Of a DNA stretch of 64,000 nucleotides, positions 22,947 through 40,375 are shown piece by piece (the stretch's first letter is position 1; every line of letters begins with the position of its first letter). The notes below the pieces were generated by a model, which did not search any database, was not told the DNA's origin, and saw nothing but the letters and a program-made list of their open reading frames with translations. Made by a program: the position numbers and the translations under genes. The stretch lies in assembly GCA_963793095.1 (NCBI GenBank), contig CAWBYY010000011.1:1151631-1215630 (forward strand). The letters are read 5' to 3'. The stretch comes from an uncultured Chloroflexia bacterium (GTDB lineage: Bacteria; Chloroflexota; Anaerolineae; Anaerolineales; UBA4823).

Positions 22947-25900
22947 ATGAGACGTACTACAAAATTACCTGGAAGGCGTCCGAAGCAGATGCGAACCTGT
23001 AAGACTTTTCAGGTATTGAGAACTTTATTGATTTTATTTGTGTTTCAGCTATTTGTCATGATTGCTGCAGCACAGCCTGTGACCGTAACAGGAACCATCA
23101 CAGATGCAGCCGGAGAGTCTATTATCGGGGCCAACATTTTAATAAAAGGTACCACCATCGGGACCATTTCTGATGTCAACGGGCAATTCAGCCTGGATGT
23201 GGATGATCCGACGGTCACACTCGTGATCTCCTTTATTGGATACTCCACGCAGGAGGTCGTTCCGGGAGACCAGCAGGTCCTCAGTATCATTATGAATGAA
23301 GATATGGTGGGACTGGACGAAGTGGTAGTGGTCGGCTATGGTACACAGAAAAAAGTGAACCTTACCGGGTCTGTGGGTACAGCCGATGGCGAAGTACTGG
23401 CAGACAGGCCCATCGCTAATACAGGTGAAGGCTTGCAGGGTGTCATACCTAATTTTAATATTACCATCCGGAACGGAGACCCTGCCGACACCCGCACCGA
23501 TTTTAATGTCAGGGGATATGAATCTATCAACGGTGGTAGTCCCCTCATCCTGATCGATGGAGTGCCGGGGGACCTTAACAGGCTGAACCCGAATGACATT
23601 GCAAGTGTCAGCGTATTGAAAGATGCTTCCGCTTCCGCCGTTTATGGTGCCAGGGCAGCTTTTGGTGTAGTCCTGGTTGAGACAAAAAAAGGAAAAGGCC
23701 GGAAGGCGAATGTTTCGTTCGGGGCGGAATTTGGATGGGCCAAGCCCATTTTCCTAATGGACCCGATCACGGACCCGTACCAGTTCGCTCTGGCAAGAAA
23801 CCAGGCCGAGCAGCGCACCAACGGAGCTGACAGTTACAACCAGGAAGCGCTTGATAGATACAAAAGATGGAGTGACAACCCCACTTTTGAAAATGCCTGG
23901 ACGGTCGAAGAGGGAATACTTCGTTTTAATGGGTACAACAATTATTCAGATGATTTGTTAATCGATTATGCCCCGCAGCAGAAGTACGACTTCAATGTTT
24001 CAGGGGCCTCTGAAAATGCATCCTATTATGTATCCTTCGGACACCTGAACAAGGATGGATACCTCAACAACAAGGAGAAGAACGAACACTTCAAACGGTA
24101 TAATGTGCTGCTGAAAGGTGATTTCAAAGTCAATAAATGGTTGTCCGTAGACAGCAGGGCATTGATCTCCACCGAGACAAGTGATATACCCACCTTTTAC
24201 AACTGGGATGTGAACATCAACACCACGGCACGTCAAAATCCAATAGCCCCGATTGCATTCCCGGACCTTCCGTATTACGTAACCCCGGGGGACCATGACG
24301 ATTATACACAGTACATAGGGAAGTATTTTGGTGGGACCAACTTTTTTGAGTACCTCGAAAGAGGCGGACGCAAAACCTTTACCAAAACCAACACCACCCT
24401 GACCCAGGGAGTAACGCTTACCCCCATTAAAGGTTTAAGAATCAGGGGAGACATCTCATATTCCCTCTATAACCGAATTTTCCAGGATGTGCAAAGCAAG
24501 GTGACAGTGATAGATCCAAACCCGGACCTCCTATCGGATAATATCCTGAGTAACGGGTACAGCGGAAATGACTTTATCCAGAACATCACTGACAATGACC
24601 AGTATTTTGTGTTGAATACCTATGCAGATTATACCATTGACCAGGGCTCCCATTATTTCAAGGCCATGGTTGGTTTTAACCAGGAGTGGGGAAGGAATCA
24701 GCAGATCGTCTCACAGGCATTCAGCCTGGTTACCCCTCAAATCACTGATCTGAATGCCACAGTAGGTGCTCAGCAAGCCGATGGTTCGAAGTCACATGTT
24801 GCCCTCAGGGGCGTATTCTACCGTGTGAATTACATCTTTAAGGACCGGTACCTGATAGAAGCCAATGGCCGGTATGACGGAACCTCCAGGTTCCCGAAGG
24901 ACGACAGGTTTGGATTCTTCCCGTCATTTTCTGCCGGATGGAGGATATCAGAAGAAGCATTCATGAGCGGAACAAGCAGCTGGCTGGATAACCTCAAGCT
25001 CCGCGCCAGCTACGGTACACTTGGAAACCAGTTGCTGGGAGACAACTACTATCCCTACATTCCAAGCATGGGAATCGGCAGTTCACCTATTATGTTAAGC
25101 GCCGGCACCAGGTCCCCCTATGTTTCAGCAGCGGGACTGGTTAGCCCGACATTGACATGGGAGACGGTGGTTACCCAGAACCTGGGACTGGATTTTACCA
25201 TGCTGGGGAACAGGCTTGATTTCTCTTTTGACATTTATTCACGGGATACCAAGGACATGTTAACGGATGTTACCTATCCTGATATCCTGGGTACTGATGC
25301 GCCTGAGGCCAATGCTGCCGATCTGAGGACCACTGGCTGGGAAATTGCGGCCACATGGAAAAACAGGATCAATACGAACTGGAACTATGGTGTTACACTG
25401 GCATTATCAGATAATAAAAGTGAAATCACCAAATACGATAATCCGACCGGATCACTCAATGAGCATTATGTCGGAGAGATCATTGGTGAACTATGGGGAT
25501 TTGAAACCCAGGGCATCTTCCAGACAGATGAAGAAGTTTTGGAAATTGACCAGAGCCAGCTGGGCTCCAACTGGAGACCGGGGGACATTCGCTACGCAGA
25601 CCTGAATGGTGACGGCAAAATTACCAGGGGTTCCAACACACTGGATGATCCGGGTGACCAGAAGATCATAGCCTATGAAAGTCCAAGATACAATTTTGGG
25701 ATCAATGGCAACCTGGGATGGAAGGACTTCACCCTGACCATCTTTTTCCAGGGTGTGCTAAAGTATGAGTACTGGCCGCCCAATGGTAACTGGAACGCCT
25801 TCTATCCCTACAATGCAGGGAATGTTGAGTGGTACTACCTGACAGAAACCTGGAGCCCTGAAAATCCAAACGCTTATTTTGCTGCACCGCATATCTCAAC

Positions 25901-26168
25901 AAATACTAAGCAGAATATTCAGGAACAGTCACGCTATGTACAGAATGCCGCCTATATTCGTCTGAAAACGATGACATTGGCCTATAACCTGCCTTCAGCA
26001 TGGGCCGGTAAGGTGGGAATGCAGGCTGCACGGATCTATTTCTCCGGATTGAACATGTGGGAATTTACCAAAATGCACAAGCCCCTTGATCCTGAAGTAC
26101 GGCCAACGCTGACCCAGGAATACTACAAGCAGCGTGTCTATTCTATAGGTCTGAATGTTACATTCTAA
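22947..26168 (+). CDS. susC: SusC/RagA-family TonB-dependent outer-membrane transporter
   Basis: Intact 1073-aa ORF. It has a CarboxypepD_reg-like domain (VTGTITDAAGESIIGANILIKGTTIGTISDVNGQFSL), a plug region (VVVGYGTQKKVNLTGSV) and a C-terminal aromatic residue (VTF). No STN domain is present. A possible later start lies at 22989. Confidence 0.95.
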   Translation: MRRTTKLPGRRPKQMRTCKTFQVLRTLLILFVFQLFVMIAAAQPVTVTGTITDAAGESIIGANILIKGTTIGTISDVNGQFSLDVDDPTVTLVISFIGYSTQEVVPGDQQVLSIIMNEDMVGLDEVVVVGYGTQKKVNLTGSVGTADGEVLADRPIANTGEGLQGVIPNFNITIRNGDPADTRTDFNVRGYESINGGSPLILIDGVPGDLNRLNPNDIASVSVLKDASASAVYGARAAFGVVLVETKKGKGRKANVSFGAEFGWAKPIFLMDPITDPYQFALARNQAEQRTNGADSYNQEALDRYKRWSDNPTFENAWTVEEGILRFNGYNNYSDDLLIDYAPQQKYDFNVSGASENASYYVSFGHLNKDGYLNNKEKNEHFKRYNVLLKGDFKVNKWLSVDSRALISTETSDIPTFYNWDVNINTTARQNPIAPIAFPDLPYYVTPGDHDDYTQYIGKYFGGTNFFEYLERGGRKTFTKTNTTLTQGVTLTPIKGLRIRGDISYSLYNRIFQDVQSKVTVIDPNPDLLSDNILSNGYSGNDFIQNITDNDQYFVLNTYADYTIDQGSHYFKAMVGFNQEWGRNQQIVSQAFSLVTPQITDLNATVGAQQADGSKSHVALRGVFYRVNYIFKDRYLIEANGRYDGTSRFPKDDRFGFFPSFSAGWRISEEAFMSGTSSWLDNLKLRASYGTLGNQLLGDNYYPYIPSMGIGSSPIMLSAGTRSPYVSAAGLVSPTLTWETVVTQNLGLDFTMLGNRLDFSFDIYSRDTKDMLTDVTYPDILGTDAPEANAADLRTTGWEIAATWKNRINTNWNYGVTLALSDNKSEITKYDNPTGSLNEHYVGEIIGELWGFETQGIFQTDEEVLEIDQSQLGSNWRPGDIRYADLNGDGKITRGSNTLDDPGDQKIIAYESPRYNFGINGNLGWKDFTLTIFFQGVLKYEYWPPNGNWNAFYPYNAGNVEWYYLTETWSPENPNAYFAAPHISTNTKQNIQEQSRYVQNAAYIRLKTMTLAYNLPSAWAGKVGMQAARIYFSGLNMWEFTKMHKPLDPEVRPTLTQEYYKQRVYSIGLNVTF

Positions 26169-26189: not shown

Positions 26190-27995
26190 ATGAAAAAGCA
26201 TATTATAAAAACAGGTTTGGTTGTTATTGCAACATTTTTGACTTTAAGTTGCAACGATGATTTTCTGGACAGACAACCATTGGATGAGATCAGCAATGAA
26301 TCTTTCTGGAATACCGAGAATGACCTGCTGGTCTACAATAACGGTCTGTATCATATTGCCAGAAATGATGATCTGGTACCCATTTTAATGGCATTCGATG
26401 ATGGTTTTGACAGCCACAAGTATACCAGCTGGAACCTGGACTGCTTCTCCGATAACATTGCACCGCGGGCTGACAGGCTTGATGAGTTCCAGCGGAAACG
26501 TGCGGGCAAACATGCTGTCATACCTGGTAGGGCCTGGTTTGGCTGGGGGGGATGGGACTTCCTAAGAGCCATCAATGTCGGTATGGATAATTATGGAAAG
26601 GCACAAGTTACTGATGAAGTTAGGAATAAATATATCGGTGAGGCACGCCTGCTGCGCGCATGGTTTTATCACGATAAAGTGCGCAAGTTTGGCGATGTGC
26701 AGTGGGTAGATACAGAGTTAAATATCGATGATGAAGATGTCCTCTACGGCGAGCGGGATGACCGTCAAACGGTTATGGCAAATGTGCTGGATGACCTGAA
26801 TTTTGCCTGTGCAAACATCCCGGATGACTGGGGTGACGGAAATGCGCCGGGAAGGTTGGACCGCTGGTGTGCACTTCTGATTAAGGCAAGGGTTTGCCTT
26901 TGGGAGGGCACCTTCCGGAAATACCACGGCGTTGGATCCGATGCTGATATGTGGTTACAACAGGCCGCTGACGCTGCCCAGGAGATCGTGGATAATGGCC
27001 CGTACGCATTGTATACAGGTGATCCTGATGGGAACGATTATAATGCCATACACCGGATGACGGATCTTTCCGGGAACCCGGAAGTAATGTACTGGAGAAG
27101 GTACCAGCTGGGTATCTACACCAATCACACCCAGAGTTATCACAGGGGTTATAATGGAGGAGCTACAAAAAGTATGGTTGAAGATTATCTCTGTACTGAT
27201 GGACTGCCCATTTCCCTTTCACCACTGTACCAGGGGGATGAGGTTTATGAAAATATCTGGGAAAACCGTGATCCAAGGTTAAGGCAGACCGTAATGCATC
27301 CTGACGACCAGCCATATTATTACTATGGGAACGGTATTCCCGAACTTTACCGATATCCCAGAATACAGGGCAATACCGGCGGTGGCATAAAAACCTATAC
27401 CGGATATCATATCATCAAAACGTATGAGAATGTTGCCGCATATAACACCTATAATGTTTCAGAAACCCCTGCCATTATATTGAGGTATGGTGAAGTCCTG
27501 TTAACCTTGGCTGAGGCAAAGGCGGAACTGGGGACCATTACCCAGGGTGATCTTGACGCGACCATCAACGCACTGCGCGACAGAGCGGGCCTCCCGGTCG
27601 AGGCACATCTGATTCTCGGCGCTGAACCAGTGGATCCGCGGTATACCTCATGGCACAGTGATCCGCTCATCGTCGAGATCCGCCGTGAAAGAAGGGTGGA
27701 ATTATTCATGGAAGGTTTCCGCTACTTCGATTTATTACGCTGGAAGTGGGGCAAACTGCTGGAGCAGAAAGATTACGGCATGCGTTGGGATGAGGCAACC
27801 CGCGCCCTGGTTGACCCGGAAGGTACTGTAACAGTAGGGTTTTCCGATGTGGATGGAGTCCCATACCTCGAACCATACCAGGGTACCGACTACGAAACCC
27901 CTGTATTCGATGAATCCAAGCATTATTTATGGCCCATTCCGATCGATGCTATTTCTCAAAATCCAGACCTAGGGCAAAATCCCGGTTGGCAATGA
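26190..27995 (+). CDS. susD: SusD/RagB-family nutrient-binding lipoprotein
   Basis: Intact 601-aa ORF 21 nt after susC. It has a lipoprotein signal (TFLTLSCNDDFLDRQP) and typical SusD blocks (ARLLRAWFYHD, ILRYGEVLLTLAEA, ERRVELFMEGFRYFDLLRW). Confidence 0.95.
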   Translation: MKKHIIKTGLVVIATFLTLSCNDDFLDRQPLDEISNESFWNTENDLLVYNNGLYHIARNDDLVPILMAFDDGFDSHKYTSWNLDCFSDNIAPRADRLDEFQRKRAGKHAVIPGRAWFGWGGWDFLRAINVGMDNYGKAQVTDEVRNKYIGEARLLRAWFYHDKVRKFGDVQWVDTELNIDDEDVLYGERDDRQTVMANVLDDLNFACANIPDDWGDGNAPGRLDRWCALLIKARVCLWEGTFRKYHGVGSDADMWLQQAADAAQEIVDNGPYALYTGDPDGNDYNAIHRMTDLSGNPEVMYWRRYQLGIYTNHTQSYHRGYNGGATKSMVEDYLCTDGLPISLSPLYQGDEVYENIWENRDPRLRQTVMHPDDQPYYYYGNGIPELYRYPRIQGNTGGGIKTYTGYHIIKTYENVAAYNTYNVSETPAIILRYGEVLLTLAEAKAELGTITQGDLDATINALRDRAGLPVEAHLILGAEPVDPRYTSWHSDPLIVEIRRERRVELFMEGFRYFDLLRWKWGKLLEQKDYGMRWDEATRALVDPEGTVTVGFSDVDGVPYLEPYQGTDYETPVFDESKHYLWPIPIDAISQNPDLGQNPGWQ

Positions 27996-28080: not shown

Positions 28081-28113
28081 TCTCAATTAGTTAATCTAAT
28101 AAACTACGTGCTT

Positions 28114-30085
28114 ATGAAGCCTATTGGTTTCATCCTGTTTTTGTTTTGCTTTCTGGCGGAATACGGGCTTTCAATTCAAGGTGCTGATCCTGTAAAAATC
28201 CAGGTAAGGGAAACATCGGAGATTGAATTGCTCCTTTCCAGATTGGAACTGGAAAGAGTAGAATTGGCCCGGGTTAAAAGTTCCATGACCAATCCGGAAG
28301 AGGCCGCTGCAGCATTACTGGAATACTACCGGGACCGGACTGCGGTCAAACACCCGGTAGACCGTTCATTGAAAGAAAAACTTTTAGGCAATGGCGCTAC
28401 CGAGAGAGACTTTAAATATGCAAACGATGCCCTGCGTCACATATTTGTCGGCCAGTCTGCTTACCCGTCACACTTCTGCGGTGATGACATCAACTGGAAT
28501 ACACGCCCTGTTCCCGATATGGAATGGGTCTGGCAATTGAATCGTATGTATTTCTGGAATGCCATGGGAAAGGTTTACTGGCATACCGGTGAGGAAAAAT
28601 ATGCCCAAGCATGGTGTGAACAGGTCGTCGACTGGATAGTCAAAAATCCGAATGACAGCGAACACAGATATGCATGGCGCTCCATTGAAGCAGGTATCCG
28701 TGGTTACAACTGGACAGGGCTGTACCAGTATTTCCTGGATTCACCCAGTTTCACCAGTGATGTTCTGGTGGCTTTTCTGAACAGTTGCTATGACCATGCT
28801 GAATATTTAATGACCAAATACCGGACCGGAAGCAACTGGGGATTGATGGAAGCTGAAGGGATGGCTTTTATCGCCATTACTTTTCCGGAATTCAAGGATG
28901 CTGAAAAATGGAGAAACGAAGCCTTCCGGCGCCTGAACAATGAGATCAATATCCAGGTATACCCCGACGGACACCAGCGGGAACTGGCCATGGGATATCA
29001 CCTGGGCTGTATCGGGTGGTTTCTAAGAACCTATGAACTGGCAAAACTCAATCACCTGGATGATGTCTTTCCCGACACATACCTTGAGAAGATAGAGAAA
29101 ATGTGTGAGGTTCCCATGAAAATCTGCCTTCCGGATGGGACAAATGTACCCTTCGGAGATGCCTGGGCAGGTAAACCGGGACAGCATGCTGAACGGTTCC
29201 TGGAATGGTCAAAACTGTTTGACCGCAATGATTTTCTGTATTTGGCAACGGAGGGCAAGAAAGGTAGTAAGCCTGAGGCCACAGCCTATGCCTTAAAAGA
29301 AAGCGGATTGTATTCCATGCGCAGCGGTTGGGACAAGCAGGCCATCTGCCTTGTCCTAAAATGCGGTCCGGATGGAGGGGGACATTGCCAGCCTGACAAT
29401 GGAACCTTCGATCTTTATGCAGGAGGCAGGAACCTGATGCCGGATGCAGGTAGTTACATCTACTCCGGTGACCGTGAAGGCCGTGCCTGGTTCCGGCAAA
29501 CCAAAGTACACCAGACACTTACCCTGGATGGCGAGAATTCCGGGTACGCCCCCAAATTACTGCTCTGGAAACCCGGGGATGACCTGGATATGCTGGTAGT
29601 TGAAAATGCCGGGTACGAGCAATTAACCCACCGGCGCGCTGTTTTTTTTGTGGATAAACGATACTTTGTAATCATTGATGAAGCCTATGGAGATGCGATC
29701 AGGAGATATAGGCTTACATTTTCAACTGGCACCCATAGGTGCAGATTTTGACTATGAAAACTTATCTGTCAGCACGGCCTATCAGGATGTCTGGAATGTC
29801 CTTGTATGGACTGAAAAGCAGGAAGGCTTGAAACTCCTTGAAGAGGAAGGACAGGTTTCATTTGAGTACACAAAAAAAGAATCAAGGCCTGCTTTTGGCT
29901 ACCATATGGAGAAAGCACCAGGAGTTGCAGGTTTGCGATTTGTAACCCTGGTAGCTCCATATGAAAAGGAAAAACCAGCCATAAAGATCAAGGTTGTTGG
30001 TGATCTCCAGCCAGGTTCATCCGGACTCCAGCTCGAAATAACGGAAAATGCAGAAACAAGAATAATAGGATATTCCTTACAGTAA
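28114..30085 (+). CDS. heparinase II/III-like polysaccharide lyase family protein (divergent member); one frame break near 29695
   Basis: Pieces 28108-29751 and 29675-30085 join as IIDEAYGDA|GDIGLHFQLAP. It has a signal peptide and alpha/alpha-toroid-type blocks (WVWQLNRMYFW, WRSIEAGIRGYNW, NWGLMEAEGMAFIA, YPDGHQRELAMGYH). HCQPDNGTFDLYAGG is typical of the Hepar_II_III domain. Confidence 0.65.
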
Positions 30086-30120: not shown

Positions 30121-32003
30121 ATGAATAAAACAAAAGCTCTGATCAATTATTTGATCCCTTTCCTGCTTGCAATGCTGATATTAACGGGCTGTTGCATATG
30201 CCGGGGAAGATATTCCTATGCTGGATAACCCCATGACGGTACAATACCTGAAAAAGAACCTCCAAAAATCCCAACCACGGCTGGTTTTGAATGCCAAAAT
30301 TGAAAAAAACCTGAAGAATAAGCTCAAAACCGATCCGGTTATTCAGAATATGTATCAGGCTATCCAGCTAAACGCCGCAGAGGTGCAGCAAAGACCCCTG
30401 CTTGAACGCAGGAAGGTAGGACGGCGTTTGCTCGGCGTATCCAGGGAAATGCTCTGGCGTGTGAATATGCTCGGGATGGTTTACCGCATGGAAAAAGATC
30501 CGGAGATTTTAGACCGGATTAACGAGGAGGTCATAGCGGTATGTAATTTTTCTGACTGGAATCCATCCCATTTCCTGGATGTGGCCGAGATGTCAATGGC
30601 CGTTGCTTTAGCGCTGGACTGGACGGCAGGGGACCTGCCCCAGTCAACGATAACCCTGGCCAAATCTGCCACTCATTGAAAAAGGGATCAAGCCGAGCTG
30701 GCCGGCCAGCGGGAAAGATCCCGGATGGGCATATGGAACCAATAACTGGAACCAGGTCTGCAATGGCGGTATGATTGCCGCCTCCATTGCCATCGCTGAA
30801 GTGGATCCGGAACTGGCCGCCAAGACCATACACAGATCACTGGACGGGATCCCGCATGCACTGGTGGAATACGGACCGGATGGTGTTTATCCGGAAGGAT
30901 CCACCTACTGGGGATACGGTACCGGATTTTCCATAGTGACTGCCGCCATGCTCGAAAGTGCTTTCGGCCATGATTTCGGACATTTTGAATACCCGGCCTT
31001 TAAAGAGAGTGCCATTTTCAGGTCTCTCTCAAATGCACCCTCAGGCTGGTACTACAATTTTGCCGATTGTGGCGATAAACGGGATGAAAACGGAGATATC
31101 CTCCTGGCCTGGTTTGCTTCCAAAACAGGCAATAAAACTTTCTTTGAGAAAGAACGCTTCCTGCGTCCGGCTGAGGAGATGGGTATGTTGCATCGCCTGG
31201 CAGGGGCCGGACTGGTCTGGCTGGCACAGTACGAAGAAAAAGAGGAAGTGAAGGTACCCACCGAATGGAAGGGAGAAGGAGCCAATCCGGTGGTATTTTT
31301 TACCGGGGGAGAAAATGATCCCCATCATTATTATTTCGGGGGAAAAGGAGGCCGCGGAATGGTGAACCACGGGAACATGGACGGGGGTTCCTTTATTTTT
31401 GAATTAAACGGTGTGCGTTGGGTGATCGACCCGGGAAACCAATCCTATCATGCCCTGGAGCAGACAGGTTTTGACCTCTGGGGACGGTGCCAGGCGTGTG
31501 ACCGGTGGACCCTGCTGACAAAAAGCAACTTCGGCCACAGTACAATCTCCATCAATGATTCATTGCACAGGACTGAAGGACTGGTCACCTTGAGTGATTT
31601 TAAATCAGGGGATCAGCCGGAAGCCACCTTTGATATGTCCGCCACATTGGCCGGACAGGTGGCAGGTGCATCCCGTAAATTTGTTAAGGACAGCCCGACT
31701 TCCCTGGTCATAGAGGATGATATAGGACTTTCTGAAGAAACAAAGCTGATCACCTGGCAATTGATGACCACGGCTGATGTGGAAATCATCAATGGAGGTG
31801 CGATACTGAAACAGGATGGTAAGGAGCTCAAACTGGAAAACATTTCCCATCCCGACCTGGATGTGTCAATCATTTCACTTTATCCTGCCCCCCTGGAACT
31901 GGATCGCCAGATTGAAGGATTAAAACGGCTTGAGATCCGCATTCCTGCCTGGACCATTGAAGGCAATACCTGCCAGATCAAGGTAAGGCTTTCAGGAGAT
32001 TAA
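30121..32003 (+). CDS. heparinase II/III-like lyase paralog A (lipoprotein); 2 frame breaks (about 30195 and 30672)
   Basis: ATG at 30121 gives MNKTKALINYLIPFLLAMLILTGC (lipobox). The gene continues in ORFs 30218-30679 and 30771-32003. Motifs are FSDWNPSHFLDVAEMSMAVALALDW, NWNQVCNGGMIAAS, YPEGSTYWGYGT and NHGNMDGGSFIFELNGVRW. Confidence 0.7.
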
Positions 32004-32023: not shown

Positions 32024-33895
32024 ATGAAATCCAAATCACTAATTGTCGTCTGGTTAAGCCTGCTATTGCTTGTTCCGGTCTATTCAAATGTCCAGGCTAA
32101 GTCATTTGATGCTGATCCTCCAATACTTGAAAACCCGGTTACGGCTGACTATTTAAAGAAAAATTTATCAAAGAAATCGCCACGATTAATCCTTACTCCC
32201 AGGATTGAAAAGGATCTGAAAAAAAAGTTAAGATCTGACCCGCTCGTTCAGGGATATTATCAGTATCTGCAAAATGAAGCCCTCAAGATAATTGAAGAAC
32301 CATTGCTGAAGCGGGAGCTTACGGGGTTCCGTTTGCTCTCAGTATCACGCCAGATGGCTGAACGCATGGGCGTTTTGTGTATGGTTTACCGAATGGATAA
32401 GGATCCGGAAATTTTACATCGAATCGATGAAGAACTGCAAGCTGTTTGCACATTCTCTGACTGGAACCCGCAACATTTTCTGGATGTTGCCGAAATGTCC
32501 TTTGCCGTTGCTCTGGCCCTTGACTGGGTTGGAGATGATCTGCCGGACCAGACAGTTGATGTAGCCGAATCTTCTTTGATAGAAAAAGGACTAAAACCGA
32601 GCTATAACGAAGGAGGGACACGTATGTTCTGGATCAGCAGCAGCAACAACTGGAATGCCGTTTGTCACGGGGGGATGATCGCTGCCTCACTGGCCATTGC
32701 GGAAAAGGATCCTGAACTGGCTGCAAAAACCATCGCACGGGCCCTGGAGAAATTGCCAAATTCATTGAAAGAATATGGCCCGGATGGCATTTATCCGGAA
32801 GGACCGAGTTACTGGGGGTATGGAACAAGCTATTCTGTGCTGGCTTCCGAGATGTTAAGAACCGCTCTGGGCAGTGATTTTGGCATATCTGAGAGCCCGG
32901 GCTTTATGGAGAGTGCCAACTTCCGGCTGCTCGCTACGGCACCTTCAGGTGAATACTTCAATTTTGCTGATTCAGATGGCCGCAAAGGCGGGAGTGGTTC
33001 TGTTTTGCTGACCTGGTTTGCCGCAAAAACGGGTGATGAAATTTACCTGGACAAACCTTTTCTGGAAAATCCGGAAAATGCTGGCAGGCTGGCTGGTCCG
33101 GGACTGGTTTGGCTTTTGCAATTCTCACAGACCAGGACTGGTGAATTGCCCCTCGAATGGTATGGAAAAGGTCGGAATCCCATTGCCGTCTTCCGGGGAG
33201 GGAAAGAAGACACCGGGCATTTTTACCTGGCCGTAAAAGGAGGTTCGGCCAATATAAGCCATGGGAATATGGATGCCGGGACTTTCATATTTGAACTTAA
33301 TGGTGTGCGCTGGGTTATCGATCCCGGCAACCAGCCCTATTACCCGTTGAACAGGATCGGTTTTAACCTGTCGGGGCATTGCCAGGATTGCCCGAGGTGG
33401 ACACTGTTGACGAAAAGAAACACCGGGCACAGTACGATTACTGTGAATGATGCCAGGTTTATTGTAGAAGCTGATGCCCCTATAACAAATTTTAAAAAAG
33501 GCGAAAGACCGGAAGTTACGATCGACATGACAGAGATTTACAGAGGAAACCTTACATCATTGCAACGCAGATATATCAAGGAAAGCAACAAGTCTTTTAT
33601 CATTGAAGATCAGATTGAAATGAATGATTCCACCCGGACGATTACCTGGGCATTGATGACCGTCGCCCATGTTACCCCGGTTAAAAATGGAGCGGTCCTG
33701 CATCAGGATGGCAAGGAACTGAGGCTTTCCATTTTAGCTCCCCGGGAGCTTGAGGTTTCAGTCATTTCACTGGATCCTCCACCCATGGAGATTGATAAAA
33801 CCATAGAAAACCTGAAACGCATTGAAATAAGGATCCCGGCTTACCTTTTCCAGGAAAAGAAAGGTTTGATCCGGGTACGGCTCGCGAGCGAATAA
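32024..33895 (+). CDS. heparinase II/III-like lyase paralog B (intact)
   Basis: 623-aa ORF with a signal peptide. In a hand-aligned block with paralog A, 50 of 67 residues are identical (FRLLSVSRQMAERMGVLCMVYRMDKDPEIL...FSDWNPQHFLDVAEMSFAVALALDW). It also has SHGNMDAGTFIFELNGVRW. Confidence 0.75.
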   Translation: MKSKSLIVVWLSLLLLVPVYSNVQAKSFDADPPILENPVTADYLKKNLSKKSPRLILTPRIEKDLKKKLRSDPLVQGYYQYLQNEALKIIEEPLLKRELTGFRLLSVSRQMAERMGVLCMVYRMDKDPEILHRIDEELQAVCTFSDWNPQHFLDVAEMSFAVALALDWVGDDLPDQTVDVAESSLIEKGLKPSYNEGGTRMFWISSSNNWNAVCHGGMIAASLAIAEKDPELAAKTIARALEKLPNSLKEYGPDGIYPEGPSYWGYGTSYSVLASEMLRTALGSDFGISESPGFMESANFRLLATAPSGEYFNFADSDGRKGGSGSVLLTWFAAKTGDEIYLDKPFLENPENAGRLAGPGLVWLLQFSQTRTGELPLEWYGKGRNPIAVFRGGKEDTGHFYLAVKGGSANISHGNMDAGTFIFELNGVRWVIDPGNQPYYPLNRIGFNLSGHCQDCPRWTLLTKRNTGHSTITVNDARFIVEADAPITNFKKGERPEVTIDMTEIYRGNLTSLQRRYIKESNKSFIIEDQIEMNDSTRTITWALMTVAHVTPVKNGAVLHQDGKELRLSILAPRELEVSVISLDPPPMEIDKTIENLKRIEIRIPAYLFQEKKGLIRVRLASE

Positions 33896-33945: not shown

Positions 33946-35821
33946 ATGAATATGAGGTTATTTGGTATCGCATTAGCCCTTGCAATATTGGGTATGGCTG
34001 GATCATGTAAAAAGGAGACAGCACCTCCCAAAGATTTATCGGAAGCAGGACATCCCAGGATACTGCTGCTGAAAGGTGAAGAGCAGCAGATCCATGACCT
34101 GATCGCAGAAGATGAAACCTGGGAAAAAATGCATTTTGCCATTATTGAGAAAAGCACCAGCCTGTTGGGGGAACCACCGCTTGAGCGGGTTATGGTAGGC
34201 CGCCGCCTGTTAGGCACCTCAAGAGAATTATTGAAAAGAGTCTTTTTTCTGTCCTATGCCTACAGGATGACAGGGAATGAACAGTACTTAGAAAAGGCAG
34301 AGGAAGAACTGGTCGCTGTATCCTGGTTCAGTGACTGGAACCCATCACATTTCCTTGATGTTGCCGAGATGACTATGGGGGTGGCCATTGGCTATGACTG
34401 GCTCTATGAGGACCTTTCTGAGATCAACCGGGAGGTGATCAAATCTGCCATTTTAATGAAAGGGATAAATCCTTCCAAAGACAGCCAATATACCTGGTGG
34501 TTAAGCTCTTCCAACAACTGGAACCAGGTTTGCAATGCCGGAATGGTATACGGAGCCCTGGCCATACAGGAAGACTACCCGGACCTGGCTGAAGAGATCA
34601 TTGACCGTGCTTTTCTATCCATTCCAATATCCATGGAAGCTTATCAGCCCGACGGTGTCTATCCCGAGGGATATGGCTACTGGGGATACGGAACAACCTT
34701 CAACATGCTTTTTTTGAGCGCCATAGAAAAGGCCCTGGGTACGGACAAGGGTTTGGCGGCTACACCTGGGTTCCTTGAAACCGGGGACTTCCTGAAACAC
34801 ATGCTCACACCCACCGGAAAAAGCTTTAACTGGGCAGATTGCGGAACGGGAACAAACCTGAATACAGCCATGTTCTGGATCGCAGAACGCACCAATGATC
34901 CTTCTGTGCTCTGGTCTGAAAAAAAGTTTTTGGAAACGAGTAATTTTTCAAAGTTTAATGGGATCAGGTCATTGCCGGCCCTTATGATATGGGCTAAGGA
35001 TATCCCGCTTTCCAACATTACAGAGCCTGAGGAAAAGTTTTTCATGGGTCAGGGAGCAAATCCTGTGGCCATAATGCGTAGCAGCTGGACTGACCCACTG
35101 GCCGTCTACCTTGGATTCAAGGCCGGTTCACCTTCAGTAAACCATGGCCATATGGATATAGGCTCCTTTGTGATGGAGGCCAATAACCGGCGCTGGGCCA
35201 CCGACCTGGGCATGCAGAATTATGAATCCCTTGAGTCGCTGGGGATGAAAATTTTTGGAAAAACACAGGATGCCGAGCGGTGGACCATTTTCCGGATGAA
35301 CACCTATTCCCATAATGTGCTGATCATTGATGACCAGCAGCAGCGCGTGAATGGTTATGCAAAAATTGACAAATATTCTGATACCGAAGATTTCATGTTT
35401 GCCATTTCTGATATCTCCCCAGTCTATAATGGCCAACTGAAAAAGGCCACCCGGGGTGTGGCGATCAAAGACGGGAAATATACCATCATCCGTGACGAGA
35501 TCGAAACACTGGATAAAACCACTTTGGTCCGCTGGAACATGGTGACTTTTTCAGCTGTTGCGCTCGCGAATAAGGAAGCAACGCTTACCGATGATGGTAA
35601 GACGCTTTATCTGAAGGTCCAGGGGCCAGACAACATAATAATGAAAACCTGGAGCACGGCCCCGACCAATAATTACGATGCCGAAAATCCTGGAACAATA
35701 ATGGTTGGATTCGAGTGTGAAGTGCCGGCAAATACTTCTCAGGCCTTTCGAGGTAATCCTGGTTCCGAAACCGGTTGATGCTGAAGCCACATTTTTAGAT
35801 ATCACCCTCGATGAATGGTAA
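33946..35821 (+). CDS. heparinase II/III-like lyase paralog C (lipoprotein); one frame break near 35745
   Basis: ORF 33946-35778 plus a shifted tail, FEVILVPKPVDAEATFLDITLDEW stop at 35819-35821, which matches the tail of paralog D. The lipobox is LGMAGSC. Motifs are FSDWNPSHFLDVAEMTMGVAIGYDW and NHGHMDIGSFVMEANNRRW. Confidence 0.75.
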
Positions 35822-35848: not shown

Positions 35849-37702
35849 ATGAAATCCAGATTAACAAAACTTTTCATCGGCGCTGTCATTGTAATGGCGG
35901 CCAATTCCTGCCAGCAGTCAAACTACCCTGAGCATCCAAGGATCTTGCTCTTTGAAGGAGAGGAAAAAGCCCTGCTGGAGCAGTTAGAAAAAACCGAAAC
36001 CTGGAGGAAAATTCACGGAGTCATCCTGGATGAGTGTGAAAATATCCTCCAGCAGGAACCACTCGAAAGAATTCAAATAGGCAGACGGCTCTTAAGTACA
36101 TCACGTGAGTATTTGCGAAGGGTGTTTTACCTGTCTTATGCTTACCGGATGACAGGCGACGAACGCTTTTCGGCACATGCAGAACGGCATTTGCTAAAGG
36201 CCGCAGGCTTCAGCGACTGGAACCCGACACATTTTCTGGATGTCGCTGAAATGACCATGGCTTTGGCCATTGGGTATGACTGGCTGTTTGATGAATTACC
36301 CGAAACCTCAAAACAGACCATAAGAGAGGCCATTGTTAATAAAGGGCTGGAACCTTCCTACAATGAAGATTATAACTGGTTCTTACAGGCGGAGCATAAC
36401 TGGAACCAGGTATGCAATGCTGGCATGGCCTTCGGGGCCCTGGCCATACGTGAAGACCATCCCGGACTTGCAGATTCTGTGATTGACCGTGCTTTTAAAA
36501 CCATTCCCCTGGCCATGCATGATTACAGGCCAGATGGTGCTTATCCTGAGGGATATGGATACTGGGGTTACGGGACATCCTTCAATGTAATATTTTTAAG
36601 TGCGGTTGAAAAAGCACTGGGAACGGACAGGGGACTTAGCGCATCTCCCGGGTTTTTGAAAACCGCCGGCTTTCTTCAGCACATGCTGGCCCCTTCCAAT
36701 GTATGTTACAACTGGGGCGATTGCGGGGCAAGGGGAAACCTAAACCCTGCCATGTTCTGGTTTGCTGCAAAAAATAACGATCCCTCACTGCTGTGGTCAG
36801 AAAGAAAATTCCTGGAAAATGATGATTTCTCAAGATTTGCCCGTCAACAGTTCCTGCCTGCCATGATGATCTGGGGCAAGGATATCCAATTGGATCAGAT
36901 CCAGGTCCCGGACTCCAAAGTCTGGATGGGACAGGGAAAAAATCCCGTTTGCCTCATGCGCACCTCGTGGACCGATCCCGGTGCCATTTACCTTGGTTTC
37001 AAGGCCGGTTCTCCTTCGGTGAATCATGCCCACATGGATGTCGGTTCATTTATGATGGAAGCAGAAGGTATCCGTTGGGTTTCAGATTTTGGTTCCCAGA
37101 ATTATGAGTCTCTGGAGTCGAAGGGGATGTCGATATTTGGAAGGACCCAGGATGCCCAGCGTTGGACCATTTTCAGGTTGAATAACTATGCACACTCAAC
37201 ATTGACCATCAATGATCAGTTGCAAAAGGTGGAGGGATATGCCAAAATAGACCGGCATTCGGAACAGGATGATTTCATGTTTGCCATATCGGATATCTCT
37301 TCTCTTTACAATGGCCTGTTAAAAAAGGCGGTCCGGGGTGCCGGCATCAAAGACGGTAAGTACATTGTTGTCCGTGATCAGATTGAAACCAATGACAAGC
37401 CCGCAAAGCTGCGGTGGAACCTGGTTACACCAGCCGATGTGGAACTGGGTGAAAAAGGAGCCATGCTGACCAGGGATGGAGAAACCTTATACCTGAAAGT
37501 CCGGGGCCCCGGCAACATCAAAATGAAAACCTGGAGCACCGCCCCCACCAATGATTACGATGCCGAAAATCCGGAGACCATCATGGTCGGGTTCGAGTGT
37601 ACTTTGGCGGCAAATACAAGCGAATCATTTGAGGTCCTGCTTGTCCCGGCGAAATCGAAAGAAGATGCTGATTTCCTGGATGTATCACTCGATGAATGGT
37701 AA
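35849..37702 (+). CDS. heparinase II/III-like lyase paralog D (intact)
   Basis: 617-aa ORF. In a hand-aligned block with paralog C, 49 of 72 residues are identical. Motifs are FSDWNPTHFLDVAEMTMALAIGYDW, NHAHMDVGSFMMEAEGIRW and the C-terminal DFLDVSLDEW. Confidence 0.75.
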   Translation: MKSRLTKLFIGAVIVMAANSCQQSNYPEHPRILLFEGEEKALLEQLEKTETWRKIHGVILDECENILQQEPLERIQIGRRLLSTSREYLRRVFYLSYAYRMTGDERFSAHAERHLLKAAGFSDWNPTHFLDVAEMTMALAIGYDWLFDELPETSKQTIREAIVNKGLEPSYNEDYNWFLQAEHNWNQVCNAGMAFGALAIREDHPGLADSVIDRAFKTIPLAMHDYRPDGAYPEGYGYWGYGTSFNVIFLSAVEKALGTDRGLSASPGFLKTAGFLQHMLAPSNVCYNWGDCGARGNLNPAMFWFAAKNNDPSLLWSERKFLENDDFSRFARQQFLPAMMIWGKDIQLDQIQVPDSKVWMGQGKNPVCLMRTSWTDPGAIYLGFKAGSPSVNHAHMDVGSFMMEAEGIRWVSDFGSQNYESLESKGMSIFGRTQDAQRWTIFRLNNYAHSTLTINDQLQKVEGYAKIDRHSEQDDFMFAISDISSLYNGLLKKAVRGAGIKDGKYIVVRDQIETNDKPAKLRWNLVTPADVELGEKGAMLTRDGETLYLKVRGPGNIKMKTWSTAPTNDYDAENPETIMVGFECTLAANTSESFEVLLVPAKSKEDADFLDVSLDEW

Positions 37703-37736
37703 ACTTAGCGTATCTTAATCAAATAAATAAACAGCG

Positions 37737-38963
37737 ATGAATAAAAATGGCCTCTATTTTTTACTGTCCATTTCTGCTTTATTATGTTCAAATTGCACCC
37801 AAAATACAAGCCATCATACGCTTACAGAATTTCCTGCTGAACAGAAAGAGATCAGAGACAGGAACACCGGGGTTCCTATCTCGCAACTCACCAATTACAA
37901 AGGGCACAGCCATCATTTTTATTTTACCAATCCAGGCTGGTTTGATGGCGGACAAAAACTGTTGTTCTCATCTGACAGAAATAACCGCACCAATTTGTTC
38001 AGTATAGATCTGAGGGACTATACCATTCAGCAATTAACCAACCTTGAACCTGTTCCTTTGCCCCGTGAAGTAGAATTTTTCAGGGCCTGCAAAAATCCGG
38101 TTAAGGATGAGGCCTATTTCTGGCATGATCTTGAACTGATAGCACTTGATCTGGAATCCCTGCATCAATCGACCATTTTTAAACTTGATTCGGGATGGAA
38201 CATATCCATGTCCAATTGTTCCGCAGACGGGAAGAATGTATATTTTGGCACATGGGAAGACCTGTCCCATCTTTTCGAGGTGGATTTGTTGCGTGGATAT
38301 ATCGGTTTTGAGGAAACCTGGAAAGCAAAACCACGCAGTAAAATAATCAGAGTGGCAACCGATGGTTCAGAAAATGAAGTGATCTTTGAAGAAGATTACT
38401 GGATCGGTCATGTAAACACCTCTCCCACCCGCAGTGATTTGATCACATTTTGTCATGAAGGTCCATGGCAAAAAGTGGACAACAGGATCTGGTGCATGAA
38501 TGTTGAAACGAAAGAAGTCTGGAAAATCCGGCCCAGGACAATGGAAGGGGAAAGAGTGGGACATGAATACTGGTTTGCTGATGGTGAAACCATCGGTTTT
38601 CATGGCTCCAGGACCGATGGCAGTGCATTTCTCGGTCACATCCGCTTTGACAACACACAGCATCTGGAGGTAGACTTCTCAAGCAATACCGGCCATATTC
38701 ATTCCAACGATGAGAGCCTGATTGTAGGTGATGGCGAAGGGTTTATTAAACTCTGGAAATGGAACGGAGTAACGTATGATGGGCCAAGAATCCTTTGTGA
38801 ACATAAATCCTCTCAGCAAACCCAGCATTCCCACCCGCATCCCCGGTTCAATGAAGCGGGGAACCAGGTCCTGTACACCTCCGATATTACAGGTTACTGT
38901 AATGTTTATCTGGTGGATATACCGGAATTTGATTCACTACCCTATCTGGATGAAAAAAAATAA
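37737..38963 (+). CDS. oligogalacturonate lyase (PL22)-like beta-propeller protein
   Basis: 408-aa ORF with a signal/lipobox (LLCSNC). It parallels Yersinia/Dickeya Ogl in blocks I recall: HHFYFTNPGW..DG.KLLFSSDR, ITFCHEGPW, VGHEYWF, SLIVGDGEG, HSHPHPRFNEAGNQVLYTSD. Confidence 0.75.
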   Translation: MNKNGLYFLLSISALLCSNCTQNTSHHTLTEFPAEQKEIRDRNTGVPISQLTNYKGHSHHFYFTNPGWFDGGQKLLFSSDRNNRTNLFSIDLRDYTIQQLTNLEPVPLPREVEFFRACKNPVKDEAYFWHDLELIALDLESLHQSTIFKLDSGWNISMSNCSADGKNVYFGTWEDLSHLFEVDLLRGYIGFEETWKAKPRSKIIRVATDGSENEVIFEEDYWIGHVNTSPTRSDLITFCHEGPWQKVDNRIWCMNVETKEVWKIRPRTMEGERVGHEYWFADGETIGFHGSRTDGSAFLGHIRFDNTQHLEVDFSSNTGHIHSNDESLIVGDGEGFIKLWKWNGVTYDGPRILCEHKSSQQTQHSHPHPRFNEAGNQVLYTSDITGYCNVYLVDIPEFDSLPYLDEKK

Positions 38964-38971: not shown

Positions 38972-40375
38972 ATGAAAAAGACCAGCCTTTATTCATTTAT
39001 GTGCCTGCTGTTTGCCCTCCATGCCTGCTCACCGGCAGATCAAAAACCCATGGTGATTGATGAAACCGGCAACTCCGAAACAATTGAAGAGGTTATTGAG
39101 ATTGATCTGGTCTGGGCAGGCCATCCGACGGGTTTTTGTCTCCTGACCCATGGCGATCGGCAGTATATTGCTTACTACAATGCCAACAGGAACATGATAG
39201 TCGGACAGAGAAACCTGGATGAAGATGATTTTTCACTTCACATTATGCCTCCGACCTATCGGGAAACAGCTGGCGGGACAAGTACGGTCCTGGGCTGGGA
39301 CAGCCATAATTCGGTTACACTGGGCATTGATAAAGAGGGTTTTATTCACCTTTCAGGAAACATGCATGCCAATCCGCTCACTTATTTCAGGAGCAAAAAG
39401 CCAAACGATATTTCCTCCCTTGTTCAGGTTTGGGAGATGGTCGGCCGTGAGGAGAATAGATGTACCTATCCGAAATTCCTTTATTCACGTGAAGGGGAGA
39501 TGATATACACCTACCGGGATGGCGGCAGCGGGAACGGTAACCAGATCTATAACATCTATGATACCGGGTCCAAATCCTGGTCAAGACTACTGGATACCCC
39601 CTTAACTGACGGACAGGGACTGATGAACGCCTATATTTCAAGTCCCGAGTTAAGAAGTGACAACTGGTACCATGCCTACTGGGTCTGGCGGGATACGCCG
39701 GATTGCCAGACAAACCATGACCTGTCCTATATGAAAAGTCCCGATCTGCAGCAATGGTTCAATGCATTTGGTGATTCTATTGAGCTGCCGGCATCCTACC
39801 CGACAAGCCAGGTTGTGGTGGACCCGATCCCGGCAGAGGGCGGGATCATCAACCTGGCAGCAAAATTCGTCCTGGATGCAAAGGACAACCCGGTTTTTGC
39901 CTATCACAAATATGATTCAGCAGGGAACCTCCAGTTCTATACCGCGCAGATCCTGGATGACAGGTGGATCTACAAACAGGTGACAAACTGGGATTACCGG
40001 TGGGAGTTCAACGGAAGGGGGAGCATTAACAGCGAGGTTATTCTGAAGGGTTTCAATGAAAGGGGGGATGGTTTTTATGAGCTGGATTACTGGCACATAA
40101 AATATGGCAACGGGTGCATCCTCTTAAATGGTGAATTTGAGTCTTGTGGGACTGTATTAAAAGCAGAACCACTCAGAACCCGTTTAAAGCCAGAAGGTGA
40201 TTTCCCGGGATTAATGGTTCAGACATTCGGGGACATTGGTAAGACTGGAGAAGTGGGAGTCAGGTATATGCTAAAGTGGGAAACACTGAACCGGAACCGC
40301 GACCGGCCCCGTCCGGAGCCATGGCCGGAACCCAGCCAGTTGTACCTGTATAAATTTATTTCCGGTATCAAATAG
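38972..40375 (+). CDS. BNR-4 repeat-containing family protein (Pfam BNR_4-like), lipoprotein
   Basis: 467-aa ORF with lipobox FALHAC. Blocks such as YIAYYNANRNMIVGQR and GWDSHNSVTLGIDKEGFIHLSGNMHANPLTYFRS match my memory of this family. Its function is uncharacterised to my knowledge. Confidence 0.5.
   Translation: MKKTSLYSFMCLLFALHACSPADQKPMVIDETGNSETIEEVIEIDLVWAGHPTGFCLLTHGDRQYIAYYNANRNMIVGQRNLDEDDFSLHIMPPTYRETAGGTSTVLGWDSHNSVTLGIDKEGFIHLSGNMHANPLTYFRSKKPNDISSLVQVWEMVGREENRCTYPKFLYSREGEMIYTYRDGGSGNGNQIYNIYDTGSKSWSRLLDTPLTDGQGLMNAYISSPELRSDNWYHAYWVWRDTPDCQTNHDLSYMKSPDLQQWFNAFGDSIELPASYPTSQVVVDPIPAEGGIINLAAKFVLDAKDNPVFAYHKYDSAGNLQFYTAQILDDRWIYKQVTNWDYRWEFNGRGSINSEVILKGFNERGDGFYELDYWHIKYGNGCILLNGEFESCGTVLKAEPLRTRLKPEGDFPGLMVQTFGDIGKTGEVGVRYMLKWETLNRNRDRPRPEPWPEPSQLYLYKFISGIK

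Follow-up and report, generated by a model that had tools for sequence, protein, structure and literature searches.

Organization of the locus

The DNA analysed here (the window) is a stretch of 64,000 nucleotides (nt) from contig CAWBYY010000011.1 of assembly GCA_963793095.1, assigned to an uncultured Chloroflexia bacterium; we take the gene cluster described here to be that of a member of the Bacteroidota. Positions 22947-40375 of its plus strand are occupied by nine co-oriented genes, those for a SusC-like transporter, a SusD-like lipoprotein, five proteins of the Hepar_II_III fold, one Pectate_lyase22 protein and one BNR_4 protein. The susC-like and susD-like genes are adjacent and are followed by co-oriented genes for carbohydrate-active enzymes, the arrangement by which a polysaccharide utilization locus (PUL) is recognized. 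We favour the view that this is an operon-like PUL which would depolymerize a glucuronate-rich acidic glycan almost wholly by beta-elimination. Its features are as follows (aa, amino acids; PL, polysaccharide lyase family; SPI, signal peptidase I; GH, glycoside hydrolase family; clades A and B are described below).

22947..26168, plus: SusC-like TonB-dependent transporter, 1073 aa; Pfam CarbopepD_reg_2, Plug and TonB_dep_Rec_b-barrel domains, no STN domain
26190..27995, plus: SusD-like surface glycan-binding lipoprotein, 601 aa; Pfam SusD_RagB, E 7e-49
28041-28072 (entered as a feature to 28082), plus: terminator- or attenuator-like hairpin directly 3' of susD, 14-bp stem, 4-nt loop, T-rich tail
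28108..30085, plus: PL12 heparinase-III-type lyase, SPI-type signal, 658 aa when repaired; Pfam and PDB matches; frameshifted
30121..32003, plus: PL35-1 (clade B), lipoprotein signal, about 625 aa when repaired; two frame changes; alignment to PL35
32024..33895, plus: PL35-2 (clade B), 623 aa, signal peptide; PL35 structure matches
33946..35778, plus: PL35-3 (clade A), 610 aa, lipoprotein signal; Pfam Hepar_II_III_C, alignment to GAGase II
35849..37702, plus: PL35-4 (clade A), 617 aa, lipoprotein signal; match to 8KHV (GAGase II)
37737..38963, plus: PL22-like beta-propeller lyase, 408 aa, lipoprotein signal; Pfam Pectate_lyase22, PDB 3C5M and 3PE7
38972..40375, plus: PL42-like (formerly GH145) BNR_4 beta-propeller lyase, 467 aa, lipoprotein signal; Pfam BNR_4 and PDB matches

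All of the elements named in a preliminary description of this DNA (susC, susD, a hairpin, five lyase-fold genes, a PL22 gene and a BNR-4 gene on one strand) are present on the plus strand. The intergenic gaps 3' of the hairpin measure 35, 20, 50, 70, 34 and 8 nt, and the range of 8-50 nt given there has to be widened to 8-70 nt; across all nine genes the gaps run from 8 to 112 nt. The five Hepar_II_III-fold genes, recognized with Pfam, span 28108-37702. Judged by eye rather than with a predictor, all seven enzymes bear N-terminal export signals, and a lipoprotein-type cysteine is seen in PL35-1, PL35-3, PL35-4, the PL22-like protein and the BNR_4 protein.

In each of the six homologous PULs that were compared, a strong hairpin trailed by T residues comes immediately after susD; besides that of the window these are the related loci which we number L002 (hairpin near position 1629), L007 (7376), L008 (717), L039 (4069) and L090 (5438). 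In these five relatives the best 60-nt segments fold with -20 to -32 kcal/mol, energies calculated with no shuffled control, and a core AAAGCCGT...ACGGCTTT is common to the window, L008 and L039. The window SusC is 62-66% identical to the SusC proteins of the lyase PULs L007, L039 and L090, and its SusD is 55-67% identical to those of L002, L007, L008, L039 and L090.

No hybrid two-component system (HTCS), SusR-like or extracytoplasmic function (ECF) regulator adjoins susC, as had been stated before, and SusC has no STN domain. The nearest regulatory genes encode a PAS histidine kinase (9287-12067) and a GntR protein (50194-50916). A scan for sigma-70 promoters returned 31 sites where 30.8 were expected and is uninformative. 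There is no gene for GH88, PL13, PL15, a sulfatase or a hybrid two-component sensor inside the locus, nor an adjacent sulfatase gene, and the earlier opinion that this does not look like a textbook heparin PUL holds for that reason.

The heparinase-fold lyases

By its sequence the first lyase gene belongs to PL12, as a homologue of heparinase III. Pfam recognizes Hepar_II_III_N (E 1.5e-100) and Hepar_II_III_C (E 6.5e-27), and the repaired protein matches heparinase III of Pedobacter heparinus (4MMI/4MMH, E 1e-134, residues 52-653, 39% identity) and, over its full length, that of Bacteroides thetaiotaomicron (5JMD, E 5e-128). The catalytic residues of PL12 in P. heparinus numbering are Asn240, Tyr294 and His424 (PMC12088678, Table 4). 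Equivalents of all three can be read from the alignment, in which the motifs GSNWG, MGYH and GGGHCQPDNG stand opposite QGNHR, PIYH and GEFHAQPDNG of the enzyme.

The other four genes fall in PL35, the family of characterized hyaluronan, chondroitin and heparan lyases called "GAGases" (PMC11262172, PMC12088678). Pfam reports only Hepar_II_III_C in them, with or without DUF4962. PL35-4 matches 8KHV (GAGase II) at E 5e-220, and PL35-2 matches 8KHV (E 1e-101), 8KHW (E 8e-84) and the PL35 chondroitinase 9O3Q (E 7e-74); PL35-1 and PL35-3 were assigned by alignment to GAGase II (35% and 50% identity). The four genes are two old tandem pairs. In clade A, PL35-3 and PL35-4 are 61% identical to each other and 50% and 54% identical, respectively, to GAGase II; in clade B, PL35-1 and PL35-2 are 54% identical to each other and 35% and 34% identical to the same enzyme. 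Asn192 (the neutralizer), Tyr246 and His401 are found in each of the four proteins. The Mn2+ ligands His403, Asp405, Asp421 and His457 are complete in PL35-3 and PL35-4; PL35-1 and PL35-2 have Asn in place of His403. PL35-4 has a His at position 191, which gives it the His-Asn pair of the alginate-active GAGase III, where this pair has been linked to activity on polymannuronate (polyM) alginate (PMC12088678).

The preliminary description had thought of PL27. The lyases match PL12 and PL35 instead; no PL27-labelled chain occurs among their PDB matches, the presence of PL27 in that library being unverified. Nor did PDB sequence searches, which did not extend to PL40, match the heparinase-fold lyases to chains of the ulvan lyase families PL24, PL25 and PL28.

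The beta-propeller lyases

The last gene encodes a BNR_4 protein (Pfam, E 2e-84) which matches members of the BT3686 family (4IRT, 5MVH and 5MUK, E about 1e-39) and FoRham1 (7ESK, E 9e-15); its PL24 matches in PDB sequence searches were weak only. FoRham1 is a fungal L-Rha-alpha-1,4-GlcA lyase (Rha, rhamnose; GlcA, glucuronate) whose residues have been defined by neutron crystallography (bioRxiv 10.1101/2022.08.29.505653). D110, H112, H132, Y166, R182, Y221, R240 and N294 of the window protein correspond to D83, H85, H105, Y150, R166, Y202, R220 and N275 of FoRham1, and all eight are invariant in 32 orthologues. Among the residues which contact rhamnose, the equivalents of Arg220 and Asn275 (R240 and N294) are thus conserved, while Tyr26 and Arg331 lie outside the aligned region. 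Because the protein scores 177 bits, far below the NCBIfam equivalog cutoff of 700 bits for BT3686, it represents a separate subfamily and not a BT3686 orthologue; it forms a clade of its own, 57-88% conserved over the sampled genome and metagenome loci.

The preceding gene specifies a protein with a Pfam Pectate_lyase22 domain (111 bits, cutoff 30) which matches oligogalacturonate lyases (Ogl) over residues 38-398 (3C5M, E 1e-31; 3PE7, E 1e-28). The enterobacterial Ogl is located in the cytoplasm. The N-terminus of the window protein, MNKNGLYFLLSISALLCSNC, reads by eye as a lipoprotein signal, which does not fit a cytoplasmic location. Orthologues with 74-75% identity directly follow a gene for PL11 rhamnogalacturonan lyase in other SusCD PULs, and one such pair sits with a glucuronoyl-esterase-like gene. 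PL11 cuts Rha-(1,4)-GalA linkages (GalA, galacturonate). The conserved PL11 and PL22-like pair, seen in L091 (8773-11206) and L093 (8301-11257) in the company of genes for GH20, a PIG-L deacetylase, a sulfatase and CE15-like esterases, suggests a second uncharacterized PUL type.

A conserved lyase-rich PUL type

Close relatives of the locus, on contigs of metagenome-assembled genomes and of metagenomes (79-93% protein identity), carry these parts in varying combinations. L006 combines genes for a hypothetical protein of 255 aa, a 497-aa protein with a twin-arginine (Tat) signal, PL12, PL35-1, PL35-4, PL22 and BNR_4, and L011 combines PL35-2, PL35-3, PL35-4, a further lyase-like gene which we call PLx, and BNR_4. 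In two others the dehydrogenase cluster that the window carries on the opposite strand comes next: after PL35-4, PLx, PL22 and BNR_4 in L013, and after the 497-aa gene, PL35-4 and PLx in L001 ("Bacteroides sp. SM23_62"). PLx is a protein of about 700 aa with DUF4962 and Hepar_II_III_C and about 23% identity to PL35. In L001, L003, L011 and L013 its gene comes after PL35-4, and before PL22 and BNR_4 if these are present; at this point the window has a gap of 34 nt (37702-37737). PL40 was considered as a family for PLx and tentatively rejected: the PL40 enzyme Uly1040 has about 860 aa, and the best matches of PLx, at about 1e-17, are to PL35 and other heparinase-fold chains.

More distant genomes keep the core together with orthologous SusC and SusD proteins (55-67% identical). 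Maribellus maritimus (L008), Negadavirga shengliensis (L002), Fulvivirgaceae BMA12 (L007) and many metagenome contigs have orthologous SusC/SusD, PL35 of both clades, BNR_4 and PL12 genes in conserved order. In BMA12 the order is ECF sigma factor, anti-sigma factor, SusC, SusD, PL35, BNR_4, PL12; in Negadavirga it is SusD, an Alginate_lyase-domain gene, PL35, PL8, PL8, PL35, BNR_4, PL12 and a further lyase. Maribellus has SusD, PL12, PL35, a hypothetical gene, PL8, PL35, BNR_4, PL12, PL8, a second BNR_4, a sulfatase-GH78 hybrid and a further lyase.

An unbiased scan of metagenomes with the BNR_4 alignment returned 80 loci, 26 of them 12 kb or longer. Of these longer loci 13 carry one or more lyases of PL12, PL35 or PL8 type, six have four or more, and a rhamnosidase-like gene is found in seven. 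We also assembled a composition set, pooling genome loci with the metagenome scan, of 26 loci that have BNR_4 and at least two lyases. PL12 occurs in 15 of these 26; PL35 clade A, PL35 clade B and PL8 occur in 14 each and PLx in 13; PL22 is confined to three, all of this lineage. Directly after BNR_4 the sister loci recurrently have either a true GH88 gene or one for a weakly GH88-like protein of 405 aa, and further extras are DUF2961 and Alginate_lyase-domain proteins, GFO/IDH/MocA oxidoreductases and sulfatases. Sulfatase-GH78 hybrids built like the ulvan enzyme P36 are encoded in L008, L028 and L039 and beside BNR_4 in L037; L057, L081 and L082 have partial copies. Outside lyase loci, BNR_4 orthologues often lie near GH106-like or GH78-like genes. 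The window locus is a trimmed variant of a widespread, conserved, lyase-rich type of Bacteroidota PUL, and the unusual weight of lyases remarked upon in the preliminary description is a conserved trait of that type.

The 64 kb were searched by tblastn with GH88, GH88-like, PL8, PLx, PLy, GH78-hybrid, DUF2961, Alginate_lyase, PL11 and GFO queries. With a GH88-like protein and its closest relatives as queries no GH88 gene was found, GH105 not being searched for specifically, and PL8 and GH78 are absent too. The earlier statement that the locus has no GH88 is borne out by Pfam scans as well, and those of the larger ORFs (open reading frames) showed no GH105 domain. A hidden substitute for GH88 can be set aside, as tblastn with the queries listed matched only the known lyases and one stand-alone sulfatase.

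Substrate and alternative explanations

The reading to which we lean, giving it a little less than an even chance, is that the substrate is a beta-GlcA-(1,4)-alpha-sugar-(1,4) polymer which also bears alpha-L-Rha-(1,4)-GlcA, and which might be likened to a glycosaminoglycan (GAG) or to ulvan. Heparosan and heparan sulfate (HS) on the one hand and ulvan on the other share this backbone pattern. As to origin, we favour a rhamnose-bearing, possibly sulfated, GAG-like glycan of algae, cyanobacteria or bacteria rather than animal heparin.

In such a scheme PL12 and both clades of PL35 would act as endo-lyases on X-(1,4)-beta-D-glucuronate bonds, either on the cell surface or in the periplasm, using the Asn neutralizer, a Tyr/His acid-base pair and, in clade A, Mn. 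SusCD would take up the oligosaccharides. The PL42-like lipoprotein might remove alpha-L-rhamnose, or a similar sugar, where it caps GlcA at the non-reducing end, and so leave a new 4,5-unsaturated end, and the PL22-like lipoprotein would cut short uronate oligomers. Removal of the unsaturated uronate by GH88 or GH105 would presumably be encoded elsewhere in the genome.

A rhamnose- and uronate-containing glycan had already been proposed in the preliminary description, and the proposal now has better backing than the evidence cited for it. That evidence included window genes for two GH106-like proteins, a sulfatase and rhamnose catabolism. Both GH106-like genes (each fragmented), the sulfatase, RhaT and the start of RhaA are indeed there; the link to rhamnose of the "rhamnulose-1-P aldolase/SDR" gene (42910-45036; SDR, short-chain dehydrogenase/reductase) is not secure, since it scores 237 bits against an equivalog cutoff of 568. 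Independent of these neighbours are the PL42 active site, the sulfatase-GH78 hybrids of the sister loci, the occurrence of BNR_4 orthologues near GH106- and GH78-like genes, and the position of PL22-like orthologues beside PL11. The PL40 ulvan lyase Uly1040, whose nearest structural neighbour is heparinase III, shares with PL12 and PL35 a two-domain fold and the catalytic design Asn-Trp / Tyr / His-x-His-Mn (PMC12915356). The fold has therefore already been recruited for alpha-L-Rha3S-(1,4)-GlcA/IdoA bonds (Rha3S, rhamnose 3-sulfate; IdoA, iduronate). PL42 in turn shares a His-His-Asp triad with the ulvan lyases of PL24 and PL25 (bioRxiv 10.1101/2022.08.29.505653). The activities reported for PL35 and PL38 enzymes on commercial GAGs are low (PMC11262172, PMC13027841), and the GAGase study PMC11262172 mentions neither ulvan nor glucuronan, gellan or xanthan in its main text.

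Several observations weigh against a rhamnose-bearing substrate. The GH106, RhaT and RhaA genes of the window lie 5-20 kb from the locus and may be unrelated to it. The sulfatase-GH78 hybrid is absent from the window and was seen in two of the 13 lyase-bearing metagenome loci of at least 12 kb. No activity on gum arabic has been seen with some bacterial GH145/PL42 proteins in which the pocket is conserved. The PL8, chondroitinase-B-domain, UxaC and UxuA genes of sister loci would fit GAGs equally well. PL35-4 is 54% identical to one tested GAG lyase and PL12 39% identical to another; indeed every PL12 or PL35 enzyme tested so far is a GAG lyase (PMC11262172, PMC12088678, PMC12269599). The only relative whose induction has been studied experimentally, the PL8-PL35-PL38 PUL of Roseihalotalea, responds to chondroitin sulfate (PMC13027841).

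A plain GAG locus is accordingly a strong rival, possible if on the whole somewhat unlikely. PL12 would then act on heparosan or HS and the PL35 paralogues on hyaluronan, chondroitin and low-sulfated HS; the two propellers would be exo-lyases for sugars other than rhamnose, for example terminal alpha-GlcNAc-(1,4)-GlcA (GlcNAc, N-acetylglucosamine), with GH88 and sulfatases encoded elsewhere. It draws on the characterized homologues and the Roseihalotalea induction just mentioned, and on sister loci that hold true GH88 and GFO/IDH/MocA oxidoreductases in addition to PL8, the chondroitinase-B domain, UxaC and UxuA. The earlier view that the locus has no obvious known substrate was too strong in this respect, PL12 (E 1e-134 and 5e-128) and PL35 offering an obvious candidate specificity. 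A conventional GAG PUL, however, has no role for the rhamnose-contacting residues conserved in the PL42-like protein or for the sulfatase-GH78 hybrids of the sister loci, and leaves unexplained both the PL22-like orthologues beside PL11 and the BNR_4 orthologues which, outside lyase loci, lie near GH106- and GH78-like genes. The preliminary description had held that its proposal would fall if the five lyases had a single known specificity and the locus were syntenic with a characterized PUL. Only half of this applies. The families are indeed characterized as GAG lyases; clade B is only 34-35% identical to tested enzymes, and no characterized PUL is syntenic.

The rhamnose-bearing substrate that we favour can be specified further, in a form which we regard as unlikely: PL12 and PL35, together with PL8 and two unclassified heparinase-fold families of the sister loci, might be the endo-lyases for a sulfated rhamnoglucuronan, which would either resemble ulvan or be an exopolysaccharide of cyanobacteria or bacteria. 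In that case the PL42 exo-lyase would turn Rha-GlcA-... into rhamnose and an unsaturated end in one step, a step which would replace GH78 and the P29 dehydratase of the known ulvan pathway.

Two of the lyase genes described earlier as five in a row are not intact open reading frames (ORFs). The PL12 gene, which has no single uninterrupted reading frame in this sequence, is split into 28108-29751 and 29675-30085 by one extra base (+1 nt) near 29698-29701. The PL35-1 gene is split by two frame changes into 30121-30228, 30218-30679 and 30771-32003, with an extra base at 30671/30672 and the other change at about 30190-30215, between the lipobox and the mature domain. These changes were assigned by comparison with the metagenome locus L006, which is 84% identical and has uninterrupted copies of both genes; PL35-1 is 91% identical to its orthologue there (L006:4835-6739). 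Unlike these two, the five remaining enzyme genes and susCD are intact.

Elsewhere in the window, genes for carB, the two GH106 proteins, a PHP-domain protein, a 2-oxoacid dehydrogenase E1, a major facilitator superfamily (MFS) sugar transporter and GH32 are split into adjacent ORF fragments (428-2680; 2843-5521, minus; 15360-17964; 44888-46106, minus; 46130-48599, minus; 57016-58403, minus; 58393-59461, minus). Splitting on this scale suggests either an error-prone assembly or genome-wide pseudogenization. Insertions that could be checked against relatives are at non-homopolymer sites and are evenly spread over the window; those in the PHP and E1 genes, compared with two relatives, are isolated, unbalanced single-base insertions at 44851, 45348 and 46658, again outside homopolymers. 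The housekeeping gene carB, which has no close relative for comparison, is split as well. Because the insertions are non-homopolymer and evenly spread, and because carB too is affected, sequence error is more likely than decay as the cause of the frameshifts in PL12 and PL35-1. Exact-sequence look-ups of PL35-2, PL35-4 and the 497-aa protein for an independent assembly gave no match; the same kind of look-up found an identical BNR_4 gene in run ERR12037369.

It is improbable, then, that the frameshifts are real and that the cluster has been pseudogenized, in a genome with many broken genes, to the point of no longer working as a unit. Decay of this kind would account for three frame disruptions within 4 kb, for a locus that lacks the PLx gene present in close relatives, and for the many further split genes. 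The checkable disruptions fit sequencing or assembly error better than selective decay, and the intact enzyme genes retain their catalytic residues. Most improbable of all is a PUL for pectin, rhamnogalacturonan-I or gum-arabic caps, as the PL22 and PL42 annotations (Pfam Pectate_lyase22 and BNR_4/PL42), the PL11 neighbours of PL22-like orthologues and the GH106 genes of the window might by themselves suggest: PL12 and PL35 make up five of the seven lyases, tblastn found no PL11 in locus or window, Pfam scans of the larger ORFs turned up no PL1, PL9, GH28, GH105, GH43 or galactanase domain, and PL22 occurs in only three of 26 related lyase loci, within this lineage.

Neighbouring genes

A possible accessory pair (20204..22477, plus strand) lies 5' of susC. 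It consists of an unannotated 255-aa protein (20204-20971) and the 497-aa protein (20984-22477), which has a Tat signal (RNRREF) and no Pfam or NCBIfam family. The latter is a member of a large family without annotation, with 1411 matches across Bacteroidota, Planctomycetota, Omnitrophota and Verrucomicrobiota. Its AlphaFold model (mean confidence score, pLDDT, 88) has the fold of L-arabinose/L-fucose isomerases (Foldseek, 4F2D and 2AJT, E 1e-19); an exported protein of this fold is unusual. We considered it as the missing uronyl hydrolase or regulator and rejected it in both roles, the isomerase fold being neither an (alpha/alpha)6 barrel nor a DNA-binding domain. In L006 both genes keep synteny with the lyases; in L001 only the 497-aa gene does. 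In L082 a 46% homologue stands beside sulfatase-related genes, one of them 59% identical to part of the Maribellus sulfatase-GH78 hybrid.

Between BNR_4 and the opposite-strand dehydrogenase gene is a gene of the Fic/DOC family (40528-41625, plus). It is absent from this position in L012 and L013, and the lowest G+C content of the window (0.41) is at 40001-42000, around it; together these suggest a recent insertion. The opposite-strand cluster (41632-50022, minus) encodes a 420-aa Zn-dehydrogenase-like protein, the class II aldolase/SDR, the PHP-domain protein and E1 and E2 of a 2-oxoacid dehydrogenase. It directly adjoins the lyases in L001, L012 and L013 and might serve to catabolize something that the PUL releases.

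Other genes of the window are an IS605-family OrfB/TnpB-like gene with OrfB_IS605 and Cas12f1-like TNB domains (51034-52395, minus), two adjacent URO-D-family paralogues of 411 and 390 aa (5530-7947, minus) beside a fragmented GH106 rhamnosidase gene, an AbiEi-type antitoxin-like gene (8111-8854, plus) and a gene for an ankyrin-repeat protein (19450-20121, minus), which is conserved 5' of the locus in L006.

Implications

PL35 and PL12 are currently taken as markers of GAG degradation in genomes and metagenomes. Here they are part of a conserved PUL of seven to nine lyases, found across several Bacteroidota families, together with PL42 and in some cases with an ulvan-type sulfatase-GH78 hybrid. 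Should the substrate prove to be a rhamnose-bearing GAG- or ulvan-like glycan, calls of "GAG degradation" in marine and sediment metagenomes would need revision and new lyase specificities would become available; should it be a sulfated rhamnoglucuronan, the PUL type would mark an unrecognized, abundant acidic glycan in marine and sediment carbon cycling. The system can be tested, as the cultured Maribellus maritimus, Negadavirga shengliensis and Fulvivirgaceae BMA12 carry homologous PULs. The main value of the window lies in the widespread PUL family that it exposes, more than in this trimmed and possibly error-ridden copy.

Comparison with known systems

The four PL35 genes of the window share their family and the catalytic Asn, Tyr and His with GAGases I-VIII (8KHV, 8KHW) and BcPL35 (9O3Q), and clade A also shares the Mn site. 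Clade B differs in being only 34-35% identical to GAGase II and in the change of His403 to Asn, and none of the characterized enzymes comes from a locus with four paralogues and PL42. With the L-rhamnose-alpha-1,4-D-glucuronate lyases FoRham1 and BT3686 (PL42) the last gene has in common the BNR_4 fold and all eight aligned residues, whereas it is found in a PL12/PL35 locus and not in an arabinogalactan-protein PUL. The heparin/HS PUL of B. thetaiotaomicron (BT4652-BT4675), which is not known to contain PL35, PL22 or PL42, resembles the window in its SusCD and PL12, the BT4657-type structure 5JMD matching the window PL12; its PL13, PL15, GH88, adjacent sulfatase and hybrid two-component regulator have no counterparts in the window locus.

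The GAG-PUL of the marine Bacteroidota member Roseihalotalea indica consists of SusC, SusD, PL8, PL35, PL38 and CE19; hyaluronan is the preferred substrate of all three enzymes, in contrast to the chondroitin sulfate on which the strain grows, and the specific activities of RiPL35 and RiPL38 are only about 0.1 U/mg (PMC13027841). Both loci are led by SusCD, have lyases only and contain PL35, and the sister loci of the window share with it PL8 and genes for the Alginate_lyase domain, which has been reported in RiPL38. The window itself lacks PL8, PL38 and CE19 and has PL12, four PL35 genes, PL22-like and PL42-like genes instead. Bacteroides caccae PUL25 comprises PL35, GH88, GH109 and a GH154-type dehydratase (PMC12269599). 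PL35 as the endo-acting keystone lyase is common to both; the single PL35 of PUL25 is accompanied by hydrolases and a dehydratase, in contrast to the window, which has only lyases and no GH88.

PUL H for ulvan in Formosa agariphila has PL28, PL40, GH105, the sulfatase-GH78 hybrid P36 and the dehydratase P29; P36 desulfates Rha3S and removes rhamnose from Rha-GlcA/IdoA-Rha3S (PMC8511951). Points of likeness are the predicted target, an alpha-L-Rha-(1,4)-GlcA/IdoA bond type, and, in sister loci, the sulfatase-GH78 hybrid and GH88; the window is without GH78, an adjacent sulfatase and GH88, Pfam scans of its larger ORFs showed no GH105 domain, and we know of no PL12 or PL35 enzyme that cuts ulvan. 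In the literature searched we found no description of a PUL combining PL12, PL35 and PL42, and no characterized PUL syntenic with this one. The families PL12, PL35, PL22-like and PL42-like and the standard PUL architecture are thus known; what is new, and unmatched by the characterized PULs that we found, is the combination of PL12, PL35, PL22-like and PL42-like genes, the four-fold expansion of PL35 and the absence of any glycoside hydrolase.

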